DNA from: Reclinomonas americana ATCC 50394
Lineage: Eukaryota
Assembly (NCBI GenBank): GCA_048213135.1
Contig: PS015223.1
Location: forward strand, 77,801-121,986
Reading direction: 5' to 3'
Length of the DNA: 44,186 bases
This document shows, piece after piece, positions 1,501 to 44,186 of this stretch; positions within the stretch are counted from its first letter, which is position 1; each line of letters opens with the position of its first letter. Under the pieces are notes generated by a model. That model made no database searches, was not told the DNA's origin, and was given only the letters and a program-made list of their open reading frames with translations. Both the position numbers and the translations under genes were made by a program.

Positions 1501-1604
1501 GGCAAATTGGAATGCATGCTCAAATCACTTGCCCTTCTCCCCCAGCCTCTATCTCTCTCTCTCTATCTCTCTTCCCCCTTCCACACACACAATAAAGACG
1601 CAAC

Positions 1605-1906
1605 ATCCTCCAACTCCTCGTCCATTACTCGCTTCAGTCCAAACGCATCGTACAAGTGCACACGTGGCGGCGATGGCAACTGCGCGCCACTGGCCGAGGC
1701 CGCGTGCTCCGCCAGAGAGGCAACCGCCGCGGCCTGCCCAGGCGGCGCCATCTCTAACAACACAGCACACGTGCAAGAAGTGAGAGAGAGAGAGAGAGTG
1801 GGGGAGACATGTCGCGTTGGTGGTGGTGGTGGCAGTGTGTGTATGTGTGTGAGTGTGTGGATGCAAATCAACCTGCGGCGCTGATGGGATCCGTTACGCT
1901 GCTCAT
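1605..1906 (-). CDS. Signal peptidase complex subunit 2 (SPC25/SPCS2)-like protein, 5' exons only; the rest is lost in degenerate GA-rich sequence and the gap
   Basis: Exons 1906-1873 and 1753-1605, joined by GT-AG intron 1872-1754, give MSSVTDPISAAEMAPPGQ...PPRVHLYDAFGLKRVMDEELED. The VxLYD...LK..(L/M)DE pattern resembles the SPC25 N-terminus as I recall it. The next donor is GTTGCGT at 1604; its acceptor is unresolved. Confidence 0.4.
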
Positions 1907-2325: not shown

Positions 2326-5300
2326 ATGAATCACCATGGCCACTACCAGTGGACGCTTGCTCTCCTGGTTGTCCTGTGCACAACATGCCTGGCTGGTAAG
2401 CTCTGCAGCGCTGCAGCGCAGTGCACCCTCTCAGCGCTGGCGCATGCGCGCAAGCCGCGCGCTGCTTATGCCATGCTTCTTGATTCTTACGTCCTCGCAA
2501 CCACCTCAAGCAGATGCGCAGACGGTAGCATTCGCCCCTGGTAGCTCCAGTGCACCGGAACAGTTTCAAATTGTGAAGGCAGTCGGAGAAGACGGTGAGA
2601 TCGATCGTGATGCGAAGGCGCGCGTGCGCAGCACCAGCACAGCAGAATCCCTACATACGCTTCCTTCTTTCGTTCTCATACCAGCACGTCGCGCGTGACT
2701 GGGTAAAGATGCAGAACCTGCGCAACATGCGGACATTTGTGACAACAACTATTTGTCAGATTGAATAGTCTCGTCGCTGTGCAACACGCCCACGTTTTCT
2801 CCTTCCTCCAGACCTCGACACCTCCGCCCCAACTGGCTCTCAGTCGGCCATCTGGGTCAACTGGACGACCCCCATCAACCAGGGCAACGCGCCGCCCACC
2901 GAGTTCGGTGTCGATGTTTCCAGCACCGGTGGCACCACCAAGTACACTGTTGCGTCTTCTCGCTCCCACTCTCCCTCCTCTCCTCCTCTCTCTCTCTCTC
3001 CTCTGCTCACTCTCCTCCTCTCCTTTCTTCTCTCCTCTCTGCAGTGCTCCGCTGTCAACGCCATTGTGGCCAACGGCGGAGCCGCCTCTGGTGGTGCCGG
3101 CTGCTACGGCATGATTCTGCGCTACTTTGACCAGAACATCCAGGAGGGCGTGCAGTACACCATCGCTGTTGCGTCTCCTCCCCTCCTCTTCCCTTCTCTT
3201 CCCCCCTCTCCCCACTCATCTCATCTCTTTCCCCCACCCGCAGGCCTACGCGGTCAACGCGTACGGTGAGGGCGTCCGCACTTCGGCGCAGGTCGTGACG
3301 GTGCCTCTCGGTGGCACCCCGCGTCAGCCGACGCTCTTGACCATCAGCTACACGGCTGCCACGTCGTTTGTGCTGTCGTTCTACCCGCCGATCAAGATCG
3401 GTCAGACTGGCGCCACTGGCTCCGGCAACGTTGCCAACTTCAACCAGCTGCAGACTCCCTTCTTCCAGGTGCAGATCCGCAGCTCGACTGGCGCCTCGCT
3501 GACCGCCTGGACTCCGGTGACCTTCTACACGGAGACCATCAACGGCAGCAACGTCAATGCGGCCATCAATCCGTTCGCCAACACGTACAACGTGCCGTTC
3601 TCGCAGCAGTCGTGCGTGGTGTCAGGCACTGGTGCCACCGCCTCGTCCAGCCTGCTGCAGCCGAACACTGGCTACGTGGTGCGCGTACGCGCTGTGGGCC
3701 AGTGGGGCTTTGGCCCGTGGAGCACTGTTGCGTCTTTCTTATCAGTCTCTTGCTTTGAGAGGCACTCAGCTCACCTCACAATTCTCCATCTTTCCTCCGC
3801 ACAGACCATGTCGGCGACCACCCAGGACGGCAAGCAGTCTCCGGGCAAGGTCGGAACCCCGATCTCTGTGGCTTCCGCCTCTGATGGCGGTCTGGTGTCG
3901 TGGACCACGCCTCAGCTGACTGGTGGTGCCATCACCGGCTGGAAGGTCGAGGCTGCGGCCTCGGCCGGCGCCAACATCGGCACTGTGATGTACAACGCCT
4001 TCGGCGCCTCGTTTACTGGCTCGCCGGTGACCGACACGACCTTTGGCCGTGTGTCTGGTGGTCACATTCTGATCTCCAAGCTGTCGTCGACCAACATCAC
4101 CAAATACGTCATCCGCGTGACTGCGCAGAACGCCAACGGTGACGGCACTGCTGCGCTCGACACTGCGTCACAGCTCGCAATCACCCTCTCCAATGCCGCC
4201 GGTGTGAACCCGGTGCTGCCGACTCAGACCCTGGTGGGCTGCTGGACGGTGACTGGAAGTACCACAATCAACTGCCTGGCCAACACGACTGCCGCCACCA
4301 CCATTGGTAGCGGTGGTTTTGGCACGACCCCGTACACTTTCGTCGCCAATGGCGTCGCTGGCGCCACTCTCGGCTTTCTGTCGATGGGTGCCAGCGACCT
4401 TACTGGCACCCTGACCTTCTCGGCCACCGCTGCTGGTACAGTGGCGCTTCAGGCGGCTAATGCTGCTGGTAGCACCTTCACTGCCGGTATCACATTTGTT
4501 TCCTCTGTCGGTGTCAACGCCCCCGCCGATGCAATCTTCTATGATCGTGCTGGCAACAACGTGGTGGGTGGCACCTCTGCCAACGGATATCTCACCATCG
4601 GCGTGAACTTTGCGGTCATTTCTCCCGGTTCGCCGACTAACCGAGGGACTGTGACCACTGCTGGCTCGGGAACTGCACTTGGCGGAATGGCGGGTGTTGC
4701 CTTCTGCAGTGGACCTACCAACCAGGCCGCAGTCACCGTTGCGACCAACTTTGCCTTTCTTGACGGAACCACTGCAACGTCTGTGCTTACGGCACCCAAG
4801 TTTGTCGTGGCTATCCGTGGAACTCCGTCTGTGATTATGTCCTATGGCGTCACCTGGACGCTGACCACAGGCAATTCTGGATCGCTTCTCTGCTGCTCGA
4901 GCAATGCAGGTCAGCCCAACGCCACTGCCGGTCGCGTAGTTGCTATTTCGAAGACAGCTGGCGCGTACAGCAAAGTATTTACGGGCTGTCCGGTCACGGG
5001 AGGGGGCACAGGCACTGGCGCGACTGTGGATGTCACTATCGGAACAAACGGCAATCTCATTGCGGCGACGATTAATGCGGCCGGCACTGGCTATGGCAAT
5101 ATGCAAGCCGTCACGTTGACGTTGACAGGCGGCGTCTGTACCAGTGGTAGCGCAACGCTGCCGGCGCCCGGCGCCAACCTAGCGACCTGTACTATCACGA
5201 GCCAGGTCGCTGGCACACTTACTGGCACCTGCACCCCTGCCGCCACCGGTATGGGAGGCTACGCCGTGGCGTCTACGTACACTGCAGTTGCCACCTCCAC

Positions 5301-8300
5301 GAGCGGTGGCGGCACTGGACTGACACTGGACCTCACCGTCAGCGCCACTGGCGTCGCTTCGGCTGTTGTCAACGCGCAAGGATCTGGCTACGCTGTCAAT
5401 GACACCATCTTTTTCACAACGCCCACTGCTCTCAGCGTTGCGGGTGGCGGCGCTGCGTACTCTGGCACTGTCAGCACAGTTAGCCTCGCTGCTACCTCAC
5501 TCGGTACCACCGCTAGTAGCATTGGTGCTCTCCCCGCCGCCAACTCGATCACCGTCATTGACATCACCGACACGGCGCTGACCTTTGTCATCACCATGAC
5601 CGGTGGGCAGTACGTTGCGAACCAGGCCACCGTCAATGCCTCGTCTGCTGCCAGCGTCTACGCTTTTACTGCCACTGGCACGGCCAACGTGCGCGGTGTC
5701 TCCGTCGCCTCGGGCCTCACCACCACCGCCAACAGCAACCAGCCCGCCACTGGTCATATTAACGGCTGGCAGGTCACCCTCTCCGGCCTCCTCCCCGGCC
5801 GTCAGTACTTCCCACAGGTGTCGTTCTCCGTCACGAATGGCGACAGCACCAACTCCTCCGCCGCCGTCTCGCCGACTGGCAACAACTTCTACACCGCCAC
5901 CAGTTGCGCTTCCCACACCACCTTTCTCTCTCTCTCTCGCCAAAGAAAATCTCACCCTCTCTTCGCCTTGCCTCTCTTGCGAACAGCCCGCCCTCCGGCC
6001 GCCACTGCCGGCTCCAACGCCATCTACTACATTGGCAGCACGCAGGCCACCATCTGGCTGCAGCTGCCGACTGACCTCGTCGGCCAGGGCGGTCTCTCCA
6101 CCAACGCCTCGGTCGGCACTGCTGCCAACCAGTTTCAGGACATCAACACCTCGCTCACCGTGCAGCAGACGTCCAACCTGGCCGTCACTGCCACCTCGTA
6201 CCGCGCGTTCGTCCTCACCGACGCTGGTCCCACCACTGTGACCGCCGCCAGCGTGTCGTCTGGCACGTGGCGCGGCTACACGTTGAGTGCGCTCGCGGCC
6301 GCTGACGCCACCACTGGCCAGGGCTACACCATCAACGTATGGACCGAGTCGCAGGTCAACCGCTCGACCAGGGCTTGGAGCGGCACTCTGACCACCAGCG
6401 GCACCGATGCCACCAAGGTGTCGACTGCGGCGCCGACGCTGTCGTCCAACCTGCGCTACGTCACGTCAACCTCGGCGTGGGTGGAGTGGGAGGGTGTGGC
6501 GGCCAACGTGGGTGTGATTGGCGCTGCCTCGTGGTACGTCAAGTCGGACTGCGGCACCGGTGCGGTGACGGTGGTCACCAGCATTGGCGACCTTACCGAC
6601 TTTGGCATCCCGGTCGGCAGCTCTGGTCTGTCGCGCAACCGCGTGCTCGTCAAGGTCACTGGCCTGACTGGCACCAGCTGCGCTGTGTCTGTGGCCTACA
6701 ACAACGGCAACGGCACTCCTGGTGCCAACGGTGCCAACCTGACCTTCTCGTCGGCCGTGGCGGTGACTCTGGCGTCCGGGGCGCCGGCCACGCCGACTGG
6801 CTACACTGTGGCGCCGTACACTGGCTCCGTGGACCAGGTCACTTCGACGTCGTTTGTCGTCGCCTTCAACTACCCGGCCACCTTTGGCACTGGCGACACT
6901 GGCGCTGCGCCGACGGCCGCCTACACGGTGACCAATGCCAGCACTGACCAGCCCGCCATCACCACCGGCTCGACTGGCAACGGCAACCTCGCCACCTCGT
7001 TCTTCGGCCTGTTCTCGTACACCTCTGGCTTCTACCAGCAGATCACTGGCTTCACTGTGAGCGGCACGACCAACAACTTTGTGGCCGCTACGCAGTACGC
7101 GGTCAAGGCCAAGTTCACCGTGAACAACAACACCACTGCCTCGTCGGCTGGCTCCATCCAGGCCACCACCGACAACAACGGCTCCGTGCCGGCTGCGCCC
7201 ACTGGTGTGGCGTACTCGCGGCTGTTCTCAACTGGCGTGCGCCTCAACTTCTCGACCCCGATCAGCGTCGGCGGCTCCAACACTGCCACCTCGAGCGCCA
7301 CGCAGAGCAACCTGACGACGCCGACTCCGAACGTGAGCGCCTACCGTGTGGTGTACTCGACCATCGGTTCCTCGTCGGTAACCGCTGTATCCGGCACTGC
7401 CGTCAACATTGACACCAGCTCCATTCCGTCCACCAACGGCACTGGCGCTGCTGTGTCGTGGAACGCCAACCTGTCGACCTACTACATTGACGTGACTGGC
7501 CTGCCGGCTGGCACCTCGGTCAACCTGCAGATCTGCGCCAGCAACCAGTTCTCGATTGCCTTCCCGACCTCGCCCTTCAACCCGGCTGGCACTGCCGCCA
7601 ACCCGGTGACGTGCGTGTTCAGCACTGCCATCAACTTCACCACTCCGGCTGCCACCGGTGTCGTGCCGAACCCGCCGACCAACTTGGCCGTGACGCAGTA
7701 CGGCCTGACCAACATCTCCCTGCAGTGGACGATTCCGCAGAACTTTGGCTCCAACGCCGTGACGGTGTTCACGATCTTCCGCGGCACGGGCAGCGCGACC
7801 CCGGTGTCTGTGGGCACGGTGACCCTGCCGGCTGGCTGGGCGCTGACTGCTGCTTATGTCGCCGACACGCTGACGGCCAACACGTCGTACACGTACCAGG
7901 TGTACGCCACTGCCACGTCGACCAACTCGGCCACGGCTGCTGGCCCGCTGACTCAGACCACTCACAACATCAGTTGCGTGGAGGGAGAAAGGAGGGGAGG
8001 GGGGTGGGAAGGGAAAGGGAAAGATTAAGAGGGGAGGGGAGTGGTAGTGAGAGAGGGAGAAGGGAACCATCTACTTGTTTTGAATATCAGTATCTCATCC
8101 ACCACCTCCCTTCTCCTCCAATACACAGATGATGCTCCGATCGCCCCGGCCGCCCCGACGCTGGCTGCTGGTATTGCGAACTCGCAGGGCACCAACTCGA
8201 GCGCCGGCTGCGCTGCTGTGGCTGGTACCCTCGGTGTGGGCTTCTCTGGCAACTGCTACCAGGACACCATCACCAGCATCTCGTGGGCGTCGCCGATTGG

Positions 8301-10728: not shown

Positions 10729-13278
10729 ATGGTACAGTGCAGTCTTGTGCGCACTCGATCATCGCTTCCTCACACTCATTGCATGGTTTTGTCGTCCGCT
10801 GCAGTCAGCCGCTGCCACGACCACCACTGTAAGCCTTCAAGCACATGTGTCATCCTCGATCGTCGCCACCGCCGACGGCCATCACATCGCCAGCGGGCGC
10901 TCTGACCACACTGTTCGTGTGATGTCCATGTTCACGCGGACCGAGGAGCATTGTTTCAGCGGTCACACTCGCACCATCCACTGTGTCGCCGCGTTTCCCG
11001 ACAGCCGACTGCTCGTCAGCGGCGGCGACGACAAGACCATCCGCGTGTGGTCGCTGGAGGAGAACCGAGAGGTGCAACGCTTTGAGAGACACACGGATGC
11101 CGTGCTCTCGCTGGCCGTGTCTCCCGCCGGCACCATGGTGATCAGTGGCAGTCGCGACAAGAGCGTGCGTGCTTGGTCGCTGAGCAGTGGGGAGCAACTG
11201 TGGCGATCCACGAGTCATGGCGGTGCTGTGACATCTGTCGCCGTGTCTGCCGAAGGCGAGATTGGCGCCAGCGGCAGCGAGGACCAGACGGTGCGCGTGT
11301 GGTCGCTTGCCACTGGCGAAAAAGTCAGAAAACTCGACAAGCACGGTGCCGCTGTGCGTGCCGTAGTGTTCGCCTTCGACAATCGTTTCCTGTTTTCTGC
11401 CTCCGACAGCGGCACCGTCATCAAGTGGTCGCTGGTGACGGGAACGCAGCAGCTACGGTTGCAGTGGCATCGAGGTCCCGTTCTGTCACTGGCGCTCACA
11501 CCGGACGGGAGTCACGTGGTGAGTGGGGGTGACGACCAACTGGTGCTCGTATGCTCCAGCTCCACTGGCAACGAAGTGCAGCGGCTGGCCGGCCACGAGG
11601 GAGCTGTGTACTCTGTTGTAATGACGCCTGACGGAAGCCAAGTTTTCTCTGCCAGTCGAGACAGGAGCGTACGCAAGTGGGACCTCGGTGCGCACGTTGT
11701 TTGTGTCGCTGTGGAGATTCTCGATGAGTGCTCCAACCTTATGCATGCGTGGTTTCGGTTCGCAGATGCTCGGGTGCTTGCGCAAGCGGGTCAGGACAGC
11801 GTTCTCGAGCTTCAGCGCATGCTTGCGGCGACGAAGATCAGTGAGACTCGACTGCGAGCGCTGTTGGATGCAACTCAGAAACAGGTCAACGATGATCAAC
11901 AAACCATGAAGGAGTTGCATCAACACGTTGCTGAATTAGTGTTGCAAGTGAGCGAGAAGGACGCCCGCCTTGCAGAAGAGAGGTCGATGGTGGCGGAGTT
12001 GCGTAGGCAGCTTGCTGTGATGGCAGTGGCTGGTGCGTTGTTTCTCTGCTCTTTTGTACCTCTTAGCCGTGCCGACTGACCTCTATCGTCAAAGACCCTG
12101 GTCGCATCCGAAAGTACGACTGGAGCGAGGTGGTGGCGGCTAGTGAGTCGTTTGATGAGCGATTCAAAGTCGGCGAAGGCGGTCAGGGTGCCGTCTACAT
12201 TTGTCTGCTGCGAGAGGAGCACGTGGCAGTCAAGTTGATCGACATTGACACCCCGTGGGCGTTGTCGTCGTATGAGAGCGAAGTTTCGTGCTCTCTGAAT
12301 GCTTCCCTGTGATCAGTGGACTGACTGCGTACGCCCAGGTTCGCACACTCGGTTGCCACTCTCATCCACGCCTTGTGCCTCTGCTCGGATATGCAGTGGA
12401 AGACTCCGATGCTGAGAACACAAGGAGGTGCCTTGTGTACCGTGCGCTGAGGTATGTCTGCGAGTCGGTGAACGGAACTGCAGCAAGAGTTCAACCTCAC
12501 TACGAATTATATTATTGATCGCAGTCGACTGGATCTCGAGAAGGTTCTTTTGCCGCAAGGAGAGCGGAGAAGACGACCTCTTAATGTGCTTCAACGTGTG
12601 TGCATTGGACTTGGGATTGTGGACGGCGTTGCGTACTTGCATGAGGTGCGTACGCGTACTCGGACGGATCGCAGTCGATGCCGCAGCATGGTGCTGACAA
12701 ACGCCACTGCAGAACAACATTATTCACCGTGACTTGAAGCCGTCCAACATTCTCCTCGAAGAACTCGAGGACCGGCTGGAGCCGCGCATTGGTGACTTTG
12801 GGCTGTCGCGTGTGATGGAGCAGGGAAAGGTCAGGGCTTGTGTTTCAAAGTCACGAGCTTTGTTCATGTCTCTCATTTACTATCGTGAACCTGTGCGGTG
12901 CTGCAGTCGCATGTCTCCACTCACGCCGCTGGCACTTATCACTACTTGGACCCGCTGATGTTGGAGACCGGCGAAGTACGGCCGGAGTGTGATGTCTACG
13001 GCATCGGCGTGCTGCTTGTTCAGCTGGTCACCGGCAAGGAGATTTCCGTCGTGAAGCAATGGTCGTCTCAGTGGTCCCGTAATCCAGCTGCACTCGACCT
13101 GCGATCGTTGGCCGATGTGGAGGCAGGAGAGTGGCACCCACGATTGTGCGTTCCGATGGTGGAGTTGGGATTCAAGTGCATGTCGATCCGCGACGTGCGA
13201 CCGACTGCCGCAGAGGCCCTGCGCGAGATGCGGCGACTGCGGGAGATTTGTGGGCAGTTCACAATGCTCATCGACTGA
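10729..13278 (+). CDS. WD40-repeat / coiled-coil / IRAK-Pelle (RLK/Pelle-type) Ser/Thr kinase fusion
   Basis: About 7 WD repeats (GH...DKTIRVW, DKSVRAW, DQTVRVW, DRSVRKWD), then a heptad-rich segment. Spliced kinase exons carry GEGGQGAVY, VAVK, HPRLVPLLGY, GVAYLHE/NNIIHRDLKPSNILL, IGDFGLSR, GTYHYLDP, DVYGIGVLL, RPT. All introns GT-AG and in phase. The start codon (10729 or the in-frame 10633) is uncertain. Confidence 0.85.
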
Positions 13279-13499
13279 TGGCGTGCCACTCGGCAGATCA
13301 TCATCCTTATTATAATAATGCACGCGTGTACGATATCCATGGCCCAAGTCGTTCACTGAGTTTTTTTTTGTCTTCTCATAACCGCGCGCACTGATCGTTG
13401 TCGACGAGTGATCGACAACAACATTCGCGGTGTATACATACGTACACCGCGAGAGAGAATGAGAAAGAAAGAGGGAAAGAGGAAAGGAACGCATGCCGA

Positions 13500-27931: not shown

Positions 27932-30312
27932 CTACTGCAGGAACGTGTGATCCATAAAAATGTCCCAGAGCGATGCCGTGAGGATGCCTACGTTGCAGAC
28001 GAACGAGCACACGTTCATGGCCAGATCTCGTATCCGCAAGTCGATCTTCGGATCCTTCAGCACCAAGTGGAAGCAGTTGACGTACGAGGCGCCGCCGAGG
28101 AGACCCACGTACACCATGAGCACGAACTGGACCCACACGTTGACAAACTTGTACTGCACGGTCGCGCAACGAGTGAGAACAGCGGCGCACACGACTAGCA
28201 CGTCCATGCACACACGCACCTTGGCCAAAATGATCCAGAACACAAAGTTGGCGCCTTGTAGTATGGTGAGAATGTCGACACGCTTGATCTTGAAGAACGG
28301 CAGCGACGAGCGCGACAGCAGTACACCGGACTGGTAGCAGAATGACAAAATGGTGTATGCGTGCTGTCGTTCCCATGAACCGACGTCGGTGGACGGGTTC
28401 GCCTTGTCGGCAGCACCCACGCTGACCACGTACTCGAAAAAGTACACCAGGCCGAGCTGTTTTCCCCCTGTGTTAGCAACCCAAGAATAATAGAAGTCTC
28501 TGATCTCCCTCCCTCTCTCTTCTTGCTTTCTCTTCATTCCCCAACTTTGCTTCTAAAGCTCTCTGTCTCGGGCCTTTTTCCATCCTCTCTCTCACGCACA
28601 TACACACACTTCTTGCATTCTCTCTCCCTCCTTCTCCATCTTCTCTCTCTACTCTCGACCTGTCCCCTCCCTCTCTCNNNNNNNNNNNNNNNNNNNNNNN
28701 NNNNNNNNNNNNNNNNNNNNNNNNNNNNNNNNNNNNNNNNNNNNNNNNNNNNNNNNNNNNNNNNNNNNNNNNNNNNNNNNNNNNNNNNNNNNNNNNNNNN
28801 NNNNNNNNNNNNNNNNNNNNNNNNNNNNNNNNNNNNNNNNNNNNNNNNNNNNNNNNNNNNNNNNNNNNNNNNNNNNNNNNNNNNNNNNNNNNNNNNNNNN
28901 NNNNNNNNNNNNNNNNNNNNNNNNNNNNNNNNNNNNNNNNNNNNNNNNNNNNNNNNNNNNNNNNNCCCTCTCCCTCTCCCTCTCCCTCCCCCTCCCCCTC
29001 CCTCTCCCTCTCCCTCTCTCCTTCTTCCTCTCCCTCTCCCTCTCCCTCTCCCTCTCCCTCTCCCTCTAATGTCACTCACCTGCAGCGAGTACCACCACAC
29101 AAGCCTCATGGCCAACTTGATATCGGTCCACCCCACCACGGCGCGCGTTGGAGGCTGCAGTTCCGTCGCCTCACCAGCCGGCTTTCCGCCGTCCACCAGC
29201 TGCATACTCTCCTCATCCTTCGGCGAGCCAGCCTTCTCCTCCTGCACGTGCTGCTCGTCCTTGCGTGGCTCCACAGACCCGTAAGCTACTGGACAGACAC
29301 GGCGACGCGGTGAGCGAGCAGTCACGCACAAGCAGACCAAGATTCGAAAAGAGAATGCCAGAGACTTAAAGAAACACGGCATCTCCACTCCCCATCGACG
29401 CAACTGGTGACACCCTCCGCATCGGTCACTGCCGGCGGACCATTCGGCAACGCGTGATATCGATCTTGCGGCTTGGAGAGCACGAAAAAGTACAGTATCC
29501 AATACACAAAGATAAAGGGCACTTGCGACAGGAAGATCCACATGTCGCTGAGACCGGCCGCATCTGCATTGTGATGCACGACAGCGTGAGCAAAAACCGG
29601 CATGACCGACCGACTGCTCTCCTTGTGTGACGCAACTGAGCAGCAGATAGTACGCCGAGCCAAAGACGCCAGCGAGTCCCGTTCCACTCGACCAGCCACC
29701 GACCAATGCCGGCGGAAACAGACTGAGGTAGCCGAGGAAGACACTGCGCAGCAACTCCACTTCAGCACGCATCCTACCTAACCCCTCGCAGCGCCCCACA
29801 AGAAGAGTTGCAAACCTCTCGCAGAACGCGGAGAATGCACCAATGAGAAGAATGCCAATGAGAGCGACTGGGAAGTTCATGTGCGGCGAGAAGGCGACCA
29901 GAACGCAGCCGGCAATCGACAAAAAGCCGCCAAAGAACATGCGCAGCGAGTACGACACCTTCTCCATGAACAGTGTGTTGACGAACTTGGCCACGAGACC
30001 AAGCGCAATGTTGGCCAGTGGAATCAGTCTGCTTCTTATCTTGAGAGAGATCGACGCAAATGTGACTGAGAATGCATCACTGACCCGATCAGATTGGGCA
30101 CATTGAAGGTGTTGACAATGTTCTGTGCGCCACTGATGACCACCACGTAGGTGAGGTTGTTGATGGCACCGAGGAAGAAGGTGGCCACTTGGTTGCGAAT
30201 CAGCAGCGATCGCTCCTGTCACAACACACACACACACATTAGCGCACACAGAGAGAGGGAGAGAGCATAAGATGCACATGTGTGCATGTGAGATGCGCAG
30301 GGAAAGGGGGAG

Positions 30313-30589: not shown

Positions 30590-33209
30590 ATGTCGGATGT
30601 GCTGACACGAGTGCGTGAGTTGGTGGAGTTGTGTGAGCGGCATGTGGAGCGGCTGGTATACTTCTCCTCGTGGGTGTCGTTTCATGTGGAGAGTGGAGGA
30701 GTTGCGCGCATGACAACAACAGAGAAGGCGTGTGCTCTTTGCTTATCCACACGTTCACACGCCGCAGAGCAAGAAGACGGACCTTGGTGGCAAGATCCAG
30801 ACAGACTGGAGTGTGTTTCTGACACGGGTGAGACAGACTCGTCTTTCTCCCTCTCTCACTCTGTGTTGTGTGTCCTCATCTATGTTGTCGTCGCCGAGCA
30901 GCATGAGCAGCTGTTGCGTGCGTTGGATGCAGGGTTCCAGGAGTTGCAGAGACTGCCGGAGGACACTCAGGTGTTTTATCATCGTCGCCTATTGCAAGTT
31001 GAGTGGTGCCACATGGAGAGGGTGAACATGAGTCGCCGAAGTTTTGCGCTGACGAGTCGTTGGCAGTGTCAAGGCGAGTTGCGAAGTGCACTGGGGAGAG
31101 CGGAGACGGCGTACATTGCTGCGCTGGCGTACTTTGATGGTTCATACACACGCCTGCTGTTGCTGCTCTTCTTGCGCCTTACTCTGGTCGTCGCCAGACT
31201 TGTTGTTGAACTCGGCGCATTTGACACGCGATCTGCGAGCGCGACACAAGGAACTCAAGCAGCTGGCCAAGCAGCAGCGGTGGACTGACGATGATGATGA
31301 CGACGAGCATGCGCAGGAGAACAAGTCGTTCGGAGACAGCTTCGTTCACTTTGGTGGTGGCACTCGCAGCACTGCAAGCATCGGCTCCAGTGGTGCCAGT
31401 TCATCGTCGATCTCCACAAGGACGACCACAGACACATCGTCGGTGTCTTCTGGATCCGGTTCCAGTGTCTGCGTCGATCCGCTGAAGGAGTTTATCGCGT
31501 TGCGTGATCTCCATGCCTACAGATATCGCCCTGTACAGCTCCGTTGCCGACCGCACGAGCTCTCTCTTCACAGTGCAAGCATGCCGGCTACCTCCACCCT
31601 CCAGCGACGCAAGTACATGGAAGAACACTGCTCATCGCGAGTGCGCCGGAAGCACCGCGAACGACAACAACAACAACCAGTATCGTCAGCGACACACGCG
31701 GGTTCGTGTGCGCGCACACAGTCAATGTTCGCACACTCCAGGAATCTCATTTGCTTTCCCCCCTCTGCCCGCAGAGTTGCTGCGACCACTGGATCCGCTG
31801 CCAGAGTACGATGAGAGGCTGACGGAGAGACTCATTCACCAGTCGACGCTGTTGCGATACCAGCTGCAGCGAATTGAGCAGGTTCGCTCGCCACCTGGAG
31901 GCTACCGTGTACTGGAGCAGCGACGCGGTATCATCTCTCTGTTTCCAAACTTGTGAGACTTTGTTGTTGTGTAAAATCGTGTGTGGACAAATCTTGTTTC
32001 GCAGCTGCTGGTCTACAGTTTTGGGTTGTTGTCGCAATGTCACTCACACACTGCTGCTGTGGAGTGGATTGCTCCGCTGAGGCTGAGGTGGCGCGTCTCA
32101 ACGATGTCGGTCACTCGGCCGTGGGTCGTGCCGACAAGCCACGGAGGCCGTGGGCGCATCGCATGGTGACGACGATTCGGGAGGCCGACAGTTTTGGGAG
32201 TTTCCGCGACACGCACGAGTGGCGCAAAGCAGAGTACGGGTGTGTCAGTGCGCGCGTGCGCTACATCCTCCGCCTGTTGCTGCTCACCGGCTTGTGAGAC
32301 AGGCACCGTGATGTGGAGTTTCTGGCGCGCGTGTTGCGCGGCCGACCACTGATCATGCAGTCGAACAGTGATGGGTGGCGTCGCAGTGCTGCAACAACAG
32401 CATCACCGGCGGCTGCTGTCGATCCGCGTGCCATCGCCTCGGTGTTCCTGGAGGCCGTCGAGGGTGCGGCCGAGGTACTGCGGGTGCGTTCGCGACTCGA
32501 CTACACTGGTGCTCGTTCGTGTGACTGTCTGCGTGATTGCGAGAGTTGTCGCGCGTGCTGCTGCATTGGTTGGTGTGGTGCCTGCTTGCGTGGCGCTCCG
32601 AGTACATTTGCCCGCGTGCAGCAGGTGCTGGATGAGTGGAACGAGGGCGTCTTTCACCCCATGGGTGTGCACTGGCGGTGAGCATGCATCCATCCGCGGT
32701 CTTCTCTCCTCCTGTCCTCACTCAACGTCTGCTGCAGTCGAGTTCGAATCCGCACGCGCTGCTGCGGTACAGGTACATGCAACAATTCAGTGTGCCCATT
32801 CTTCGACGCCTGCTGTCCCTCGTTTGTCGACAGCAACACGACAGCGGCCTATCACGTGCCCAGGTGATGCCATGGAAGCAAGCTAGTTGCATGTGTGACA
32901 TTGGCCACTGACCACGCGCGTCCCCTGTGCAGTCTCCGGCAGCAACTGTGGTGGTGCTGCGCTCCGGCGCTGTGCTGCTGCTCGTGCCCACAGCCACTGA
33001 TCTTCCTCCAGCTGGTGTCGCATCAGCGCATCGCGTCGACCTTTGAGACGGCGGTCCGCCGCAAAGCAGAACTGGCAGCGGCGGCAGCGACACGAGCAGC
33101 GGATCCCATCACACTGCACGCACCGCAGAGCACCGCCAGATCGATCCGCGATCGACAGGCGACGCTTCCGGAGGCACCGAACCACGACAGAGTGCCCGTG
33201 TCGCCGTAA
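30590..33209 (+). CDS. Multi-exon hypothetical protein with N-terminal helical/coiled region and C-terminal Cys-rich ERF4/GOLGA7/CHIC-like domain (could be two genes)
   Basis: Phase-consistent exons from ATG 30590. Region 32313-32678 reads FLEAVEGAAEVL...CDCLRDCESCRACCCIGWCGAC...VQQVLDEWNEGVFHPMGVHWR, like the ERF4/CHIC pattern (Cys-rich hydrophobic core, then L.EWN..(L/F)...G..W). Junctions between 31880 and 32300 not resolved. Confidence 0.5.
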
Positions 33210-34364: not shown

Positions 34365-34419
34365 GAGCAAACGAAAGGACGCAACAGGACTTCGCCTTCT
34401 CACCGCCTGTAGCCAGAGC

Positions 34420-36448
34420 ATGGGTTGCGTGTCTCGCTGACATCACGCCACATGCAGTGCCTCTCACTCACAGTCTCCTCACACACACGCACATAGGTGT
34501 CAATCACTCGCACGACAAAGCCGCAGCTGCTGCGCCGCCACCGCCACCAGCAACAACACAGAATGGTCACAGTGCGCCACTCTCCTCACGGACTGTGACC
34601 TTCTCTGCGTCAGCTTCTGCAGCTGCTGATGTTGGTGGTGGTGGTGGAAGTGGAAGTGGAGCGGGAGGAGAGGGCTCGTCATCAGCGCCACCTCAACACC
34701 CCACACCATCGTCATCACCGACACTGGGAGCGGCAGCGGCGCCACCACTCAGTTGCGTGAGGCTCTCTCTCTCTCACTGTGTGTGCGCGCGTGTATGTGT
34801 GTGTGACAGGCGCATGCAGGTTCATTCTCGCACAATGCGAAGAAGAAGGTCCATGTGAATGCCGTGGGCGAGATCATCTACAAGGACACATCGGCGTGGG
34901 ATCTCATGACGGCGATTCAAATGGGTGTGCGATACACGGTGGGTATGACTACACCGCGTATGGGAGTGGCGGCGGCGCTCGACGAGCCCACGGCTGTCGA
35001 TTTTGCCGAGGTGCAAAAGATTAGTTTTCCAAGTGAGGGCACCAGCACAACGCCGGCGCACCCCGCCAAGGTTTGTCTGTGTCTACAATTGTGTGTGTGT
35101 GGCACCTCCTCGTCTGTGGCGCTGATGCGGGGCGATGCGCAGAGCTTCCGCTTCAAAGACTACGCGCACAAGGTTTTCGCTCGAATACGCCAATTGTTTC
35201 ACGTGGACCCCGGCGACTACATGCTGTCGCTGTGCGGCGAAGACTCGCTGCTGATTCTGGGCACGCCGGGCAAGAGCGGTGCCATTTTCTTCTTCACCGA
35301 GGATCAGCATTTTATTTGCAAAACGGTCTCCAAATCGGAGGCCAAGTTTCTGCGCAGGATTCTGCCGCTCTACTACCAGCACGTCATGGACAATCCCAAC
35401 ACCCTGCTTCCGCGATACTACGGCTTGCATCGAGTGAAGCCGCGAGGGTCGCGGCGAGTACGCTTCGTGGTCTTTAACAACATTTTCGACACCGATCTGC
35501 TCATCCACGTCAAGTACGACTTGAAGGTGCGTGTGCTGGTAGAGCGGCGCTTGTTTGCGTCTGACCGCATCGTCGCCCCCCAGGGTTCCACCGTCGGTCG
35601 CAGTGTGGGCGACAAGAAGACGAAGCGCGGCGCCATCCTCAAGGATCTGGATCTCGAGGAGCCGCTGTATCTCGGCCCGAAACGTGATCTCTTGCTCGAG
35701 CAGATTGAACTCGACTGCGCTGTTGCGTCGTCCCGCTGGCTTTTCATTTGTAGTGTGGTGTGGTGCACTGACGATCCCGCTGTCGATGCACGCAGCTGCT
35801 CGAGGTCTGCAACATTATGGACTACAGCTTGCTGGTCGGCATACACTACGAGGATCGCGATGAGCCGGACGAGTCCGCCAACTTGGTGTTGCATCGTGTC
35901 GAATCGCGCGGCCGCCGCTTCTCCATTCTCATGCACAACTTGCCCGGCAGTTGCGTGTCGTCTCTCCTCTTCCCCCCCCACTTCGCGTTTTGATGGTCGC
36001 CGCATGCAGCTGGCAGCTCCGAAGGCGATCCCGAGCCCGACGCCGCCGGTGCCGCCAACGTCGACGATGGAGAAGACAAGTGCGTGGCGCTGTTCTTTGC
36101 TTGCCCGTAGGGAGTTGCTCATCCCGGCTGCCACCTTGCTTTCGCAGACTTGGAACCTCGGTCTTCCAAGAGGACCAGGGCGGCATTGTCGGCGTGGACG
36201 AGCGAGGGGAGCGTCGTCGCGAGACCTACTACATCGGCATCATTGACACGCTACAGGAATTTACGACGCGCAAGCAGCTCGAGTACACATTCAGGTCGCT
36301 TGTGCACGACAAGGTGCGTGTGGCGAGAGGGTTTTTGTTGTTACGTGCTTGTTGGACTCACTCGTGAGATCAGAGCGAGGTCTCGGTGAACCCACCCGGT
36401 CTGTACGCCGCTCGCTTCCAGCGCTTTATTGCCAGTATGACAGTGTAA
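34420..36448 (+). CDS. PIP5K: Phosphatidylinositol-4-phosphate 5-kinase
   Basis: Spliced motifs FRFKDYA, GKSGAIFFFTED..FICKT, TLLPRYYG, KYDLKGSTVGR, LKDLD, IMDYSLLVG, YYIGIIDTLQEF, SVNPP.LYA.RF. Start MG(V) at 34420 inferred from a phase-1 intron 34424-34496. Confidence 0.93.
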
Positions 36449-37294: not shown

Positions 37295-38933
37295 AGAGAC
37301 GGCAGCACCCGCTGCTGTGCCAGGAGTCGATGCAAGGGGAGAAGAGGAGAGAGGAGACGAAGATGACGAAGGGGAGGACGAGAGCTGGGAGGATAGTGAG
37401 GAGGAGCGCGCGAGAGGACTGCGAGGAAGCTCGCACGCGACGCTGGTGACCACATTCAGTAGCATACGAGACTTTGAGCGCCTCACGCAGACCGGCACCT
37501 GGTTCATCCTCTTGTTGCGTGCAGTTGTTCGTTGGCACTCGCTGCGGTATGTTAGCTGATGGACGGACTAAACGGCCGCGCAGCTATGTGCAGCACTCGC
37601 CGCCGTGTGAAAAGATGATGCACGTGTTCTCCAGTGCGGCTGCTGATGTGGCCAACATGCACCTGTCGGTCAAGTTTGGCGCCTTTGAGTGCAACGGCAA
37701 CATGCGACAAAAGTGCATCTCCCTGCAGCTGGCCGCTGTGCCGCATCTCGCCTGGTGCGCCCCCCAGTGCTTGTGATTCTGTTGCTGTGCACTTGTCCTC
37801 CCCTTGCTCACGACTACGCCGCGTTCTTTCCCCTTTCCCTCTCTCGATCGCAGGCGAGCGCACGGTGTGCTGTCGGCCTACAGTGGACAACGCAATCTGC
37901 TGCACATCATTCAGTTCGTGGTCTCCGCCTTCTCCCCCGTGCCCTTCACCACAGCGGAGAGCATCAATGAGCTGCCGTTGGACCACAACGAGGCGGTGGT
38001 AATCATGACGGCGCCCAAGGCGGATTCGGCATCGGCGGTGAGTGCACGCGAATCAAAAAACGACCTCTTATGCCTGTGAGCTCACTCATCGTCGACGACG
38101 ACACGCGTAGGTGGCCCTGCGCGATGCTTCTCTTGCATTTGCCACACGCGAGACGGTCCAGTTCTTCCGTATTCAGTCGCTGCGAGGCGTTGCGCGGCTG
38201 CAGGGCGAGGTGCGAGAGGAGGCCAAGCATTGCAAGCACGCCGGTACACTGTTGCTCAATCGTAATCGAGAGCACTTTTACTGTGCGGGTGCACTTGCCG
38301 ATCCAGTTGCGCATACCACCACCACCGCGATTGCAGCCCTCTCCTTGTTGTGTGACTCTGATCACGTGGCGGTGGTGATTCCACAGACGCAACTCGGCAA
38401 CTGGATTCACAACCATCAGCTGCCGATCGCACCACAGTTCAATCGGGAGATGATGGACATTGTCCGCGACTCTGTTGCGTGCACGCCCACCACTCATTAT
38501 CGCTTACTTCCGCTCCTCAAAAGTCATGCCTTGCGTCTCACTCACCGTGCAGATTCGCGCCCCCGTATTTGTGCTCGTGGTGCTTTCCGACTCGAATCTA
38601 ACGAGGAGCACCATGGCGGCTCTCGAGCAGGCCAGCATCCAGGACCCCTCACGATTGTACGCGTACGCGGCCTACGCCAACCAGCGGGATTTGTTCCTGG
38701 CCGAGCCCGTTCGAGTTGTCACGCAGCAATTACCCGCATTGGTGCGTTACGACTTTTTTGACTTGCGCAACTCGATCGTATCGGTGATCACCACCATATT
38801 GCCCGAGACGATGGTGGCTGCCGCCAAATCGATAGACGGGATCGCCTTGCCGGTGCCAGAGTCGGAGCCGGAGCCGGCGGCAGCGGAGCAAGCGGAAGAC
38901 AACCATGCGGAGAGTGCTAATGATCGGGAGTGA
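36570..38933 (+). CDS. Type II membrane thioredoxin/PDI-like protein with degenerate active site (SPPC)
   Basis: N-terminal TM (FGMVVLCVLGLTVAGVLSTAFVA) and a low-complexity stalk. Then TWFILF-YVQHSPPCEKMM...VKFGAFEC...C...QLAAVPHL...YSGQR (thioredoxin a-domain pattern) and b-like domains (WIHNHQLP). Confidence 0.7.
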
Positions 38934-38999: not shown

Positions 39000-41900
39000 A
39001 TGTCCGTGTCGGATGTGGGTGTGGCCGCAGCCGTGCCATCGGTCGCAACCGACTCGCAGCCAGTGCCATCGTCGTCGTCGTCGACTGATGCCGAGGAGAA
39101 CAGCAGCCTGTACAGTCAGGTGGTGGCCAGCTACCGCGCGTGCGTCGCTGGCGCCAGCAAACACCCCTCAGTGTCGGCCAAGGCGTGGGCGCACACCGTT
39201 CCGAGTGTGGGCGACGAGCCTGATGGTGCGATCGAAGCGGCGCAGGTGGCCAAGATGCAGCGCACCGTCGAGCAACTCGGTCAGCGACAATGGGGAATGT
39301 ATCATCGACCAGAATGCGAAGAGGAGCGACGTGTTCGTGAGTACGTTGAGTACTCACACATGGCGCTCTTCTTGTCGCGGTGGACAGACGCGGTACGTAC
39401 TCTACACCACTGCACACGCACTGTGTGGGTGTGCGTGTGCGGCGAGACGTGCCCGTGTCGCTCACATACACGTGCAGGTGCTGTTGCGATTGGAGTTGTG
39501 TGCACGAGCGACACATCAACTCGGCGGTCCGCGACCACCACTGCTGACGCTGCCTGACGTGCGGCCACTGCTGTTCCACGAGGTAAGGCGCATGCCAGAT
39601 GAGCCGAAACCTCGAAACTCAACACTGATGCGACCACAGATGACGCAAATGCCGGACTCGGTGGAGGCATTCATCACGCTCATGGAGCCGATTTCGACGC
39701 ACATTGATCACCTGGCCACCGCCATTGCTGAGAATGTGAAGCACGCTCGCGAAAAGGTACCAACGTGTGAGCGAAGGGAACGCGGTGCCTTTCACTGACG
39801 CACTGCGGAACACACCACAGCTGTTGCAGTTGCAGACAAGTGCCGGAAATGCGGCTCCTGCCAACGGTGATGGCCGTCGACCGCCCGCACACAGAAAGGA
39901 TCAAGCGACAGCTACCACTGCCACACCCACAATCGTCACTGCTGCTGCGACTTCCGTCGCTGCTGCTGCTTCTCTGCCAGCCGGTTCCACTCCGCAACGG
40001 AAGACCCGGAAACAGGAACTGGACGATGCGCACTTGACCATTGCCGTGCTCACGCAGCGACTGCGTTTGGCGTCGGAAGAGGTGCAAAGCACCAAGGATG
40101 CGGTACGTTCACAACACAGTGATCACGGGGAGGTGATGATGATGATGTGCATGCATTGTGACATGATCGCCACCGCATGCAGTTTGCGGAAACCGAAAGG
40201 CACTTTCAACAACTGTATGCCTCCTTGCAGGCTGAACTGGGCGGCCTGTTTGACGAGGTTGCGTTGCCCTTATTTCTTTCACTAAGGGTGGGGGTTTGCC
40301 ATGGCTGAAGGCAACCATGTCTGCGTGCGCGCAGTTTGAAAAGTCCAGCGCACGACGCGATCTGGAACGGGAGCAACTGATGCGAGAGTTGCAGACCGAA
40401 TTCACCAACGCGATTGACAAGGTTTGGCGAGCGAGAGGCGGCCAGTTCGGCTGGTGTGTGCACAGCGTCTCACCACACACACGCACTCAACAGATCAGGC
40501 AACATCAAGATGGTCCAGTGGGCGACCGGCGGAGATTATCGCTGGTTCGTCCGCTGTGCGCCAGCCAATCACTGCCAACTTTCTCTCTCTCTCTCACGCA
40601 TACATCGCTGGCGGTGTGAACAGAATGTCCCTGGTATCGTGCTACGCGACAATCCCGTCAAGAGCTGGCGTGAGGAACTCGAGTGCGTGCACGCTGTAAT
40701 CACTTTCACTTCTCTGCAAATACGCTGTACCGACGGTGACTGCAGAATTCAAGAGGGACAGCGCGTAACCGTGCACACGTACATGATCTCCATCGAGGAC
40801 ATGGCTCTACGTATCCGTGAGAGCCGCGAGCGCTACCTGTGGTTGCGAGACAAGATTCTGCAACCGGATACCGACGAGGTGAGCGCTCACCAATCAATAT
40901 CAAAAGTCGGTCGGTTTTGTGACTTAACAACATCGTGCCCCGTGGCAGCCGCTATCCTACGAAACCCTCAACCAGATAGTCAGCGAGGCGGACCAGCTGC
41001 CGGCTCGACCGTGCAGCTTTGCGCACAACGGAGTGCAGGTGCCCGACGAGAACGACGCCGTCGAGTGTGGCGTGCAAGCCGACGGCATTCTGCCACTCCG
41101 ACTTCTCGCGACTCGTCTTTGTGAGAGCTGTGCTTCGCTGCGCACCAACAATGCAGAACTCGAGCAGCAGGTCGCACAGCAGAGTGCGCACATCAAGACA
41201 CTGGAGTCCAGGCTGCTGCAAGTGACTCTGGAGCGCGACTCCATGGTGCGCGCACAGGAGATTGCCGACCGTCTCGGGCTTCGGTTGGCCACTCTGGATG
41301 AAGTGCACGACCTGCTGGTGGAGTCATTTGCGGCGCGAGCTGTGGCGGAGCAGGCGGTTGTGGAGTGTGCCGGGGCATTGTCACGAACACACGAACAACT
41401 GGTGGCACTGAAAGCAGAATTGGGTCAGCGGCGGACACTGGTCACCGACTGCAACGACAGTGCCACCGCCATGCTCGCCGCGGCACGCGAGACTCTCGCG
41501 CCAGTCATGGGCGACAGCTCCCGCCTTCTCGGACTGTGTGGTGACCTGGTGGCGAAGAGCAATGCTCTCCGGTACGTGTGTTGTGTTGTTGACCCTCCGT
41601 TGTTGTGGCAAGAGTTGTTGCTGACGTGCGGACGGGAAACACAAACACACACACAGTGAGCAGCCTGCAGTGTCCGAACTGGCGACTGATGAGGTGTCGG
41701 AGCTCGCCACTGGCCTGCACGAACTGCTGGTATGCAGCACCATGCAGTGCGACAGAAGTGGTGTTCACAGACTGACTTGTTCGTTTCACAAACCACAGTC
41801 AACAATGCGCACCGTCAACGTCCAGAATGTCGCCTCAATGCTGGTATGCTGCCACTGGAGCTGGAAAGAGGCAACATGCTGCCGTGCACTCACTATGTGT

Positions 41901-44186
41901 GGACTGCGCGTGTACAGAAATACTGGCAAAAGACGGCGACTGAGAAACACGGCTCCAATCCCGAGGTGGTGGACAAGATCACTCGTGCTCTCGACGCTGC
42001 GCTGGCGTACATTGCCGGTGGAACTCCAGCAGCTTCATCCCGCAAACTGATTCGCCGCCGCTCGTCACTCTCGCAGCAGCAGTTTGTGCAATTGCGCAGG
42101 CGGTCAGTGGCCTTGACGCATCCTGGGCGCAACAGGCGAGTAAGCATCGCAGCAAGGCAAGACGATGACGGCGATGGTGACGAAACTGGCGATGGACGCG
42201 ATGCGAGACGGCTGGCGAGCAGCGACGGTGCCAGTGATCTGAAGCAGTTAGAAGGCGACGGCGATGCACGGCGTGGCTCCCTCGCCGCCGCAACGACACC
42301 GACTGGCGGTCGACTGCACCGACGAGCAAGTCGCGGTGGCTCGATTTCATCAACGGTGTCGCCGCGTGCAAGCTTCGTGTTGCACAAGAGCTCGTCGAAT
42401 GCGCTGGACGTTGGGCCTGCGTCTGGCAGAGGAGGAAGTAGACGGACTGCAACACCGGAGCAGGCCTCTGCACGGCGTGAGGAACCATCGACACTCGCAT
42501 CAACAGCGGACGACTCGGCCGGAACGACGGCTGCTGTGGAGCAAAACACTGCGCCGGCTGCGTCGTCCCGCATCCACTCAATTCTGGACCCACTGGAACC
42601 GAAGGAACAACTGCAGCGCGAACATAAACAGCAGGAACAACAGCAGCCGTCAGCAGTCACAGCATACCCACAGTCGCCGTCGGACCCGCTTCTGGAGCAG
42701 CTCCTCCAACCGCACCCGAGCCAATCATCGTCGCCAGACGGCACAGGCCAGTCAGCACATCAAGAGCAGAAGCAGCAGCAGCAGCAGCAGGAGCAACAAC
42801 AACAACAGCAGCAACAGCCGCAGCAACAGCAACCACAGCAGCAGCAACCACAACAGCAGCAGCAGCAGCAACAAGAACGCCAGCAGCGCCAGCACGGTCA
42901 GCATCAACAGGGCGACGCGGCTCCTGGCGACGAGGCAGCTGCTCAGATGCCATCGGAAGTGCGACAATCGCAGGACCAGCCTGTGCATCCGCCTTCGACA
43001 CCAGCGGATGAGCAGCCGGCGCCACTGGCTACGCCACAAGCCTCACCGCGTCAGCGGCAGCAGGAGATTGGCTCCCTCCGACGGCTACAGGACCAGCAAC
43101 AGCAACAAGACAAGTCGCAACAACGAGGCTCGCTGCAACAGCTCTCCTCCCGCAGCCAACACCGTCACATTTCCCTCGACCAGGCGCCAGTGTCGTCATC
43201 TCCTCGTGCACCTGACAGCGTGCGCCGACCCAAGGCACAGGCGCTGACGTTGGATCCAGCCAGCCAACGATCCATCGTGATCCAACCAGACATTGGCGTA
43301 CCGCTGCGAACTCACCCACCAGTCGCATCGAAGCCGACGCTGAAACCGATTGCAGTATCGACACCAAAGGCCACTGCTCCACCTCCGCAAGCACTGGACG
43401 TCGATGCGGCGAAGCCAGTGCCCGAGCCAACGCCAGAACCAGCTGCATCGTCACCTGCAACAACAACAACAGCAGCAAGTGACGCCACACCCGCGGCCGT
43501 CGACACGGCAACGGCTGACGACCCGGCCGCAGTGACCGTGGCTGACTCACAGCAAGAGGCCGATGCCGCGCCGGCAGAAGTGCGCCCAGAGCCTGTGGTG
43601 AAGAGGAGAATTCGAGCGCCACTGTACGACCCAAAGGCCTCACGCGATCGAACCGGATCAAGAGAGCGGCCGCCGAGTCGACCAACATCAATGGAAATCT
43701 CCGAATCGGCGGCGCTCGTGGTGGCAGCAGGCACGTCAGACCTGGACGACATTGGCACCTCCGTGCGTGGAGAGCAGCATCCGCCCAAGGATCCACTCTC
43801 GAAGAAGGAGTACCGTTACGTCGTCGTACGCACACCACAAGCAGCGCTGACTGACACGCACTGACCGACCGCGTGTGCACGACACAGATTTTGCCGTTTT
43901 CGACCCCACCGCCATGCTTGGCAACACGCGGCAGCCGCGCGCACCTGCGCATCAGGAGGCACCAAACCTGTTGCACTTGCGCAAGGAGGGCAGAAATGCT
44001 GCCAATCGGCGGTCACCATCGCCAGAACTGACGCCTGAGCCAGCAGCACGCGACAATCCCAACCCTCCGGTGCAACACGAGGTGACCCTCACTCTCGATG
44101 CAGACCTGCCGGTTGGCCAGGGTGCTGGTGGTCGGCGATCTCCACCACTACTGCCCAATCGCCGACCCGCTGCCTCACAGTCGACC
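39000..44186 (+). CDS. Large multi-exon hypothetical coiled-coil protein with polyQ/low-complexity C-terminal region; runs off the window
   Basis: About 13 phase-consistent exons joined by GT-AG introns. Heptad segments (40020-40420, 41140-41570). Frame still open at the window end. No family recognised. Confidence 0.65.
42760..42910 (+). repeat. CAG/CAA polyglutamine-coding repeat
   Basis: Interrupted (CAG/CAA)n encoding QQQQQQEQQQQQQQQPQQQQPQQQQPQQQQQQQQ. Confidence 0.9.

Follow-up and report, generated by a model that had tools for sequence, protein, structure and literature searches.

A putative second class of 5′ splice sites, GTT-NN-GT, in a 44 kb window of the Reclinomonas americana genome

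Roca and Krainer reportedly described in 2009 human 5′ splice sites that are read by U1 small nuclear RNA (snRNA) in a register shifted by one base (+1), and Roca et al. are said to have added 5′ splice sites of the bulge +2/+3 register in 2012. U12-type introns of the minor spliceosome, in turn, carry the 5′ motif RTATCCTT and, near their 3′ end, the branch motif TCCTTRAY. Here we analyze a window of 44,186 bases (~58% G+C, eight N runs; contig PS015223.1, positions 77,801 to 121,986) from Reclinomonas americana ATCC 50394, from which all counts below are drawn and in which 21 donors (5′ splice sites) had been proposed to read GTT-NN-G, mostly GTTGCGT, next to ordinary donors such as GTGCGT. 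These GTT-NN-GT sequences (the GTT class) could well be the real 5′ ends of short introns of the GT-AG type, handled by the major spliceosome, and form a second class that U1 recognizes in the +1-shifted register, a reading in which our confidence is evenly balanced. That they represent a true second donor type is the likeliest view, and among the mechanisms the shifted register has the best support.

Shifted and bulged U1 registers have been demonstrated in human cells, according to PMC4856993 and PMC11162779, and the latter puts all non-canonical human registers together at an estimated 1.5% of sites. Like the human +1-shifted sites (e.g. ACA, GUCAAGUAUA; PMC4856993), the GTT class has GU at the cleavage position, the consensus one position deeper, no G at −1, and an exon end resembling positions −3/−2 of ordinary sites. 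It differs in its putative abundance, which is roughly one fifth to one third of the recognizable introns in the window as compared to the 1.5% given for all non-canonical registers (PMC11162779), and in being dominated by a single heptamer, GTTGCGT, with U at +3; its register is one that we infer. The bulge +2/+3 sites of Tan et al. 2016 (PMC4856993) likewise show GUU followed by consensus-like bases, but keep the pairing of G at −1, of which the GTT class is depleted (2/21). At the tandem donor of STAT3 (PMC11162779), as would be the case in the GTT class, the cleavage position and the G that pairs with the U6 ACAGA box are separated by a number of bases other than five; STAT3 is, however, one isolated case in which the G is nearer by one base (four), whereas in the GTT class it would lie one base further (six) in many introns. 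U12-type introns, too, are a second class whose 5′ motif is long and uniform and does not require G at −1, but the motif is different, and the branch-like motif, its spacing and the 3′ end in the GTT class are those of ordinary introns. A search of a literature collection with few subscription journals, judged mainly from titles and the openings of abstracts, found neither GTTGCGT/GUUGCGU as a splice motif nor a genome-wide shifted-register class; a tunicate paper touches on the idea in passing.

Occurrence of the GTT motif and its putative use as a donor

All 21 proposed donors were found to carry GTT-NN-G, comprising 15 GTTGCGT, two GTTGCGC (5903 and 23082), two GTTTCGT (12283 and 26366), one GTTGAGT (30998) and one GTTACGT (43815). 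U at +3 is common to all, with G+6 U+7 in 19 and G+6 C+7 in two. The preceding exon ends in A at nine sites, T at eight, C at two and G at two, as originally stated. The heptamer GTTGCGT occurs 23 times on the two strands, compared to 8.68 ± 3.05 expected from dinucleotide shuffles, none of 100 shuffles reaching 23. Fifteen of the copies are proposed donors and the remaining eight correspond to chance level. The enrichment is accompanied by a strand bias, with 21 of 23 copies on the sense strand of gene models (p=6.6e-5), or 15 of 16 when restricted to genes oriented by homology (p=5e-4). The first base of NTTGCGT is G in 23 cases, C in eight, and A and T in three each. The nature of the extra base was assessed by scoring 818 sites with either G+5T+6 or G+6T+7, of which 33 were accepted; 22 of these had G+6T+7 without G+5T+6, and ten of the 22 were GTTGCGT at proposed donors, while among the other 12, nine had a coding-like interior and two used the acceptor of a neighboring intron. 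The extra base is specifically T.

Some GTTGCGT copies that had not been proposed as donors lie close to ordinary ones. The copy at 11998 (+) is upstream of a predicted ordinary donor at 12033, and that at 25084 (−) is downstream of GGTGCGT at 25110-25116, taken as a donor by motif alone; both may be alternative donors, and the two pairs of GTTGCGT and ordinary G|GTGCGT (11998/12033 and 25084/25115) are spaced by 31-35 nt. A further sense-strand copy (27903-27909, −) lies ~25 nt past the CLN3 stop codon and could represent an intron in the 3′ untranslated region or a chance occurrence.

Donor use was examined with a Viterbi gene finder that combined codon log-odds (generic amino-acid weights), an intron-content model skipping the first eight intron bases, and an acceptor matrix, and for which the donor information was limited to GT, or GC with a penalty. 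This donor-blind run predicted 45 introns, ten of which begin exactly at proposed GTT donors (2949, 3168, 3727, 5903, 7973, 26366, 29404, 29636, 35722 and 35950). Nine of these ten read GTTGCG[TC], where 0.33 would be expected from random picks of GT, since only 41 of the 5609 GT dinucleotides are of this form (P=4e-11). The remaining predictions comprised 18 with G+5 and 17 without a recognizable donor, which are probably wrong; homology showed predictions at 29827 and 36092 (no recognizable donor) and 38462 (G+5) to be misplaced. When an equal bonus was given to any G+5T+6 or G+6T+7 site, 38474 was recovered as well, where the donor-blind run had picked 38462. At 23082, the finder with the bonus picked another donor (23202), and at 24568 the gene finder, in its runs without and with the bonus, picked 24589 or 24586.

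Five of the seven introns predicted in a giant gene with fibronectin type III (Fn3) repeats belong to the GTT class. Four of the five are in frame, three of them without a stop codon, and when read through as codons these introns score about −0.6 or −0.7 per codon, compared to about +0.5 in the flanks (for 2949..3044, −0.58 vs +0.59 and +0.56). Removal of 3168..3243 is needed because the reading frame is otherwise lost, and the exon before 3727 runs up to the end of an fn3 domain, the Pfam fn3 match reaching profile position 78/84. The junctions of this gene could not be judged with a profile of its own repeats, which scored too weakly.

Junctions were also placed by protein homology. For PIP5K and CLN3, a profile hidden Markov model (HMM) was built from 30 homologues each, and every GT/GC-AG pair around each junction was scored. 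The pair 35722/35795 ranked first of 41 candidates in PIP5K (87.1 vs 81.0 bits) and the pair 29636/29564 first of 32 in CLN3 (89.5 vs 85.7 bits), the second score in both cases belonging to a GC-AG donor three bases downstream, which was rejected. Intron removal at both sites restores frame and protein alignment, and tblastn alignments run ungapped across both junctions. If the dinucleotides are left free, homology fixes the intron length alone (74 and 73 nt, respectively), and within the range scanned no GT-AG pair other than the proposed one gives that length. The same approach fixed ordinary donors in both genes (Table 1).

At other sites, homology was less exact. In FAM161 the junction falls in a non-conserved linker, and the donor at 24568 (185.3 bits) is inseparable from a GTCAGT donor that lies in frame at 24586 (190.1 bits). 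The kinase exons around 12283 match segments of the kinase N-lobe in the correct order, with the junction position not exact, and a search for kinase homologues at a strict cut-off of 1e-5 gave no match. No match in Pfam, NCBIfam or PDB was obtained for single exons of the CX9C protein, nor a family match in the same databases for the exons flanking 37514..37583. Local models at 1604, 30998, 34424 and 34752 were not convincing.

Taken site by site, the original prediction of 21 used donors thus held in part: ten were recovered blind, two of these (35722 and 29636) being fixed by homology as well, and 38474 was recovered with the bonus, whereas 24568 is ambiguous and four sites have no convincing model. 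About half of the proposed donors have independent support, and 12283, 23082, 37514, 40258 and 43815 are plausible donors as judged from local models or motifs only. Of the four protein motifs said to be restored by splicing, IMDYS of PIP5K was confirmed, but the thioredoxin motif had no support on single exons in Pfam, NCBIfam or PDB; the twin CX9C is readable in the sequence, but its junction lies within a loop, and that of FAM161 is ambiguous.

Five introns of 57-72 nt in PIP5K and CLN3 (35071-35142, 35527-35583 and 36314-36373 on the plus strand; 28154-28219 and 29744-29815 on the minus strand) are stop-free and a multiple of three in length. The open reading frame continues through them, and they are visible only as insertions of 19-24 residues relative to homologues.

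Last exon base, exon ends and intron bodies

The GTT donors had been claimed to follow mainly exons that do not end in G, and this association was evident in both a blind and a curated set. Among the donor-blind predictions, G at −1 precedes none of ten GTT donors as compared to 14 of 18 donors with G+5 (Fisher p=1.5e-4). In the curated comparison the figures are 2/21 and 17/18 (p=5.8e-8), the 18 ordinary donors here being author-chosen rather than blind (seven supported by homology and 11 from gene-finder runs or hand reading). At junctions supported by homology, the same comparison gives 0/2 vs 7/7 (p=0.028). The two GTT donors with G at −1 are 34424 and 40258, and G is below base composition at this position in the GTT class. 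In the curated ordinary set, the lone non-G at −1 is found in the intron at 36080-36147 (+), which reads caa GTGCGT.

The preceding exon bases carry a further signature. Ordinary exon ends (n=18) show C7 A6 G4 T1 at −3, A11 T5 C1 G1 at −2 and G17 A1 at −1, and those of the GTT class (n=21) show C13 A4 G2 T2 at −2 and A9 T8 G2 C2 at −1. When positions −3 to −1 of the GTT class were scored with the ordinary matrix, the log2-likelihood was −116.8 for an alignment moved by one position and −182.7 for the unmoved one, with background at −127.4, making the slid alignment better by 66 bits than the unslid one and by 11 bits than background. The exon ends fit the ordinary consensus once this is displaced by a single base, in line with the alignment originally suggested, with G+1 of the intron at the place of exon G−1. 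Expressed as elements, the ordinary site is (C/A)(A/T)G followed by GTGCGT and the second class is C(A/T) followed by GTTGCGT, i.e. the same nine bases with T replacing the G that normally starts the intron. A simple insertion of T into ordinary donors is disfavored because it would keep G at −1.

Apart from the donor, the GTT introns were indistinguishable from ordinary ones. The median length was 76 nt for the 17 modelled GTT introns and 68 nt for 14 ordinary introns; a branch-like motif, CT[CGA]A[CT] (CTSAC), was found 8-35 nt from the 3′ end in 15/17 and 12/14, respectively, and the CAG end in 17/17 and 12/14. Given this common length, branch-like motif and CAG end, both classes look like introns of one spliceosome. 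The share of the GTT class had been put at about a quarter of introns; the present counts, like that figure from one window, are 4/12 in PIP5K and CLN3 and 10/28 recognizable donors of the blind set, and the class would make up roughly a fifth to a third of the recognizable introns.

U1 register and alternative readings

If U1 snRNA binds the ordinary and the GTT elements alike, G+1 of the GTT class would take the place of exon G−1 opposite C9 of U1, U+2 would be mismatched, and U+3, G+6 and U+7 would fill the places of U+2, G+5 and U+6. Cleavage would then occur at the only GU that the element contains, which lies one base further upstream than usual, and it is because of this that the exon would so rarely end in G (2/21). 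We infer splicing at the GTT sites, this U1 register and the handling of G+6 by U6 from the sequence. The one-base slide of the exon ends favors the +1-shifted register over one with a bulged U.

Several observations weigh against this reading. Duplex energies were computed with a human-type U1 5′ end (11-mer; PMC4856993), which may differ from the U1 of the host, and range from +0.7 to −5.1 kcal/mol for the GTT class as compared to −2.8 to −13.2 for 18 ordinary donors. With this U1, all 18 ordinary donors pair canonically, whereas the minimum-energy duplex of the GTT donors is shifted in 7/21, canonical in 2/21 and not sensible in 12/21. The T found at −1 in 8/21 does not pair with U10 of U1, and these eight are poor in any register. 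Furthermore, GC occupies +4/+5 in 17/21 GTT donors and the corresponding +3/+4 in 9/18 ordinary ones; canonical U1 reads GC at +4/+5 poorly, and compensation would predict A. At the U6 step, PMC11162779 gives a spacing of five bases between cleavage and the downstream G that pairs with the ACAGA box as the rule, and a spacing of four as the sole exception described; G+6 would place cleavage six bases upstream. Finally, five of the ten blind-set GTT cases fall in one gene, and the counts are confined to one 44 kb window.

The weak human-type duplexes and the displaced G+6 therefore keep alive a rival in which the GTT donors are real but are read by a variant U1 and/or U6 with complementarity to GUUGCGU, or else by a protein factor. 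Its appeal lies in the greater uniformity of the GTT class (17/21 GTTGCG vs 9/18 GTGCG in ordinary donors), the G and C at +4/+5, and a displaced G+6 that needs explaining at the U6 step too, as well as in duplexes that are weak with human-type U1 in any register. Against this stand the exon ends, which are those of ordinary sites slid by one base and for which the same reader is simplest, and the branch-like motif, acceptor and length common to both classes. Nor was any snRNA gene seen in the window: an Rfam scan gave 0 matches at the gathering score, and the 16 weak matches at E<=1 were mostly to microRNA families, with no U1, U2, U4, U5 or U6. We regard a variant reader as unlikely.

A bulged extra U (+2 or +3) with U1 in the canonical register is still less easy to reconcile with the data, and we consider it decidedly unlikely. 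Such registers are documented in human cells (PMC4856993), and the two donors with G at −1, 34424 and 40258, do fold in this manner, with G+1 on C8. The bulge would, however, keep the pair between G−1 and C9, so that G−1 would be expected as often as in ordinary donors (17/18) and not in 2/21, and the unshifted model of the exon ends is the one that fits worse by 66 bits.

That the GTT donors are an artefact, i.e. chance motifs that entered models made by hand, junctions put in the wrong place or a T added during assembly, is very improbable in our view, even though five of the 21 sites are ambiguous or without a convincing model, four of the five GTT introns in the Fn3 gene are in frame (three of them stop-free), and the gene finder is crude, with 17 of 45 introns lacking a recognizable donor. 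The motif enrichment, strand bias and donor-blind recovery (P=4e-11) speak against it, as do the homology-exact junctions at 35722 and 29636 and the sharp drop in coding score inside in-frame introns. The assembly variant is rejected because a T added in error should show no dependence on the exon base before it.

A separate intron type, either diverged U12-like introns of the minor spliceosome or recent copies of a mobile introner, is hardly credible: a long, near-invariant 5′ motif without exon consensus does resemble U12-type sites, and the Fn3 gene has five GTT introns out of seven predicted, but the 5′ motif differs from RTATCCTT, the introns match ordinary ones in CTSAC, in how far it lies from the 3′ end and in ending with CAG, and the 17 intron bodies are no more alike than shuffled ones (maximum 28 vs 30). 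The introner family was rejected on 136 pairs of intron bodies with a mean local score of 8.27 as compared to 7.52 when shuffled, the top-scoring pairs being CT-rich low complexity, and the U12 type on donors reading GTTGCGT and on a 3′ part, including the branch-like motif and its spacing, that is the one seen in ordinary introns.

Returning to the +1-shifted register, its widest form is a tentative one: U1 shifted throughout assembly with U6 cleavage six bases upstream, or a dedicated variant U1/U6, might define a fifth to a third of the introns. That this would amount to a parallel second 5′ splice-site code in routine use within the major spliceosome is likewise conceivable but doubtful. 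If true, the organism would provide a natural system for asking how far 5′ splice-site recognition can drift from the canonical register, how the handover from U1 to U6 proceeds with a displaced G, and what sets the cleavage position. Gene finders with a single donor matrix would mis-model genes with GTT introns, and since many introns in the window are short, in frame and stop-free, such errors would be easy to miss.

Features and genes of the window

The window is intron-rich with very short introns, and the introns, motif copies and genes are collected in Table 1.

Table 1 Introns, donors, motif copies and genes in the 44,186-base window. Exon end, last three exon bases.
Feature	Coordinates	Strand	Length (nt)	Exon end	Donor...acceptor	Location and basis
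GTT intron, phase 0	2949..3044	+	96	act	GTTGCGTC...CAG	Fn3-repeat gene; donor-blind finder
GTT intron, phase 0	3168..3243	+	76	gct	GTTGCGTC...CAG	donor-blind finder, local model
GTT intron	3727..3804	+	78	act	GTTGCGTC...CAG	donor-blind finder
GTT intron, phase 1	5903..5986	+	84	cca	GTTGCGCT...CAG	donor-blind finder
GTT intron, phase 1	7973..8128	+	156	tca	GTTGCGTG...CAG	donor-blind finder; one read-through stop codon
Probable GTT intron	12283..12338	+	56	gaa	GTTTCGTG...CAG	protein kinase gene; read from sequence
Probable GTT intron	23019..23082	-	64	tct	GTTGCGCG...CAG	between CX9C halves; local model, exon translations
Ambiguous, GTT donor	24493..24568	-		ctc	GTTGCGTG	FAM161; alternative in-frame donor gtc, GTCAGTCG at 24586, common acceptor
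GTT intron	26309..26366	-	58	cga	GTTTCGTC...CAG	donor-blind finder
GTT intron	29289..29404	-	116	cca	GTTGCGTC...CAG	CLN3 variable loop; donor-blind finder, local model
GTT intron	29564..29636	-	73	tca	GTTGCGTC...CAG	CLN3; donor-blind finder, profile HMM, tblastn
GTT intron	35722..35795	+	74	gct	GTTGCGTC...CAG	PIP5K before IMDYS; donor-blind finder, profile HMM, tblastn
GTT intron	35950..36009	+	60	gca	GTTGCGTG...CAG	PIP5K variable insert; donor-blind finder
Plausible GTT intron, phase 2	37514..37583	+	70	ctt	GTTGCGTG...CAG	local model only
GTT intron	38474..38552	+	79	tct	GTTGCGTG...CAG	finder with register-neutral bonus, site scan
Plausible GTT intron, G at -1	40258..40334	+	77	gag	GTTGCGTT...CAG	local model only
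Plausible GTT intron	43815..43887	+	73	acc	GTTACGTC...CAG	local model only
Proposed donor, no convincing local model	1598..1604	-			GTTGCGT	
Proposed donor, no convincing local model	30998..31004	+			GTTGAGT	
Proposed donor, G at -1, no convincing local model	34424..34430	+			GTTGCGT	PIP5K non-conserved 5′ part
Proposed donor, no convincing local model	34752..34758	+			GTTGCGT	PIP5K non-conserved 5′ part
Ordinary comparator intron, in frame, stop-free	35527..35583	+	57	aag	GTGCGTGT...CAG	best of 66 candidates; insertion vs homologues
Ordinary comparator intron	28154..28219	-	66	aag	GTGCGTGT...CAG	CLN3; profile HMM, tblastn
Ordinary donor	35071	+		aag	GTTTGT	PIP5K; profile HMM
Ordinary donor	35527	+		aag	GTGCGT	PIP5K; profile HMM
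Ordinary donor	36314	+		aag	GTGCGT	PIP5K; profile HMM
Ordinary donor	30084	-		cgg	GTCAGT	CLN3; profile HMM
Ordinary donor	29815	-		gag	GTTTGC	CLN3; profile HMM
Ordinary donor	28219	-		aag	GTGCGT	CLN3; profile HMM
Ordinary donor	29079	-		cag	GTGAGT	CLN3; tblastn
GTTGCGT copies not proposed as donors	11998+, 12628+, 25084-, 27909-, 30913+, 31499+, 34385-, 38393-				GTTGCGT	12628 plainly coding
Gene, giant Fn3 (fibronectin-type-III) repeat protein	2709-10432	+				Pfam fn3
Gene, protein kinase	about 12000-13300	+				best PDB matches receptor-like kinases
Gene, MAPEG protein	13503-14239	-				
Gene, PHD-finger protein	about 18500-22700	-				
Gene, small protein with two CX9C motifs	22917-23190	-				two exons, one motif per exon; translations only
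Gene, FAM161	about 23600-27450	-				
Gene, CLN3/battenin	27935-30491	-				
Gene, PIP5K	about 34300-36445	+				

Protein searches turned up neither a protein of this genome nor a close relative. The best protein matches reached an identity of 41-42% for PIP5K (Naegleria, Willaertia), 53% for CLN3 (dictyostelids) and 47% for FAM161, from which the lineage appears poorly sampled in protein collections. A metagenome scan with the PIP5K core returned 35 loci, all with at most 60% identity in the best segment, and the six loci inspected had no GTTGCGT and an unrelated base composition.

Extended stretches of (TC)n/(GA)n and of (CA)n are present at 1348-1632, 20576-20969 and 30219-30488; they are probably the source of the weak sub-threshold microRNA matches in Rfam, several of which lie in regions with GA/TC repeats. 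For the kinase (12067-13275, +), the best solved relatives of the N-lobe exon were plant receptor kinases of the LysM/CERK1 type and IRAK1 (E about 3e-4). The Fn3-repeat gene has a strong codon bias, with A at only 4-7% of third codon positions.

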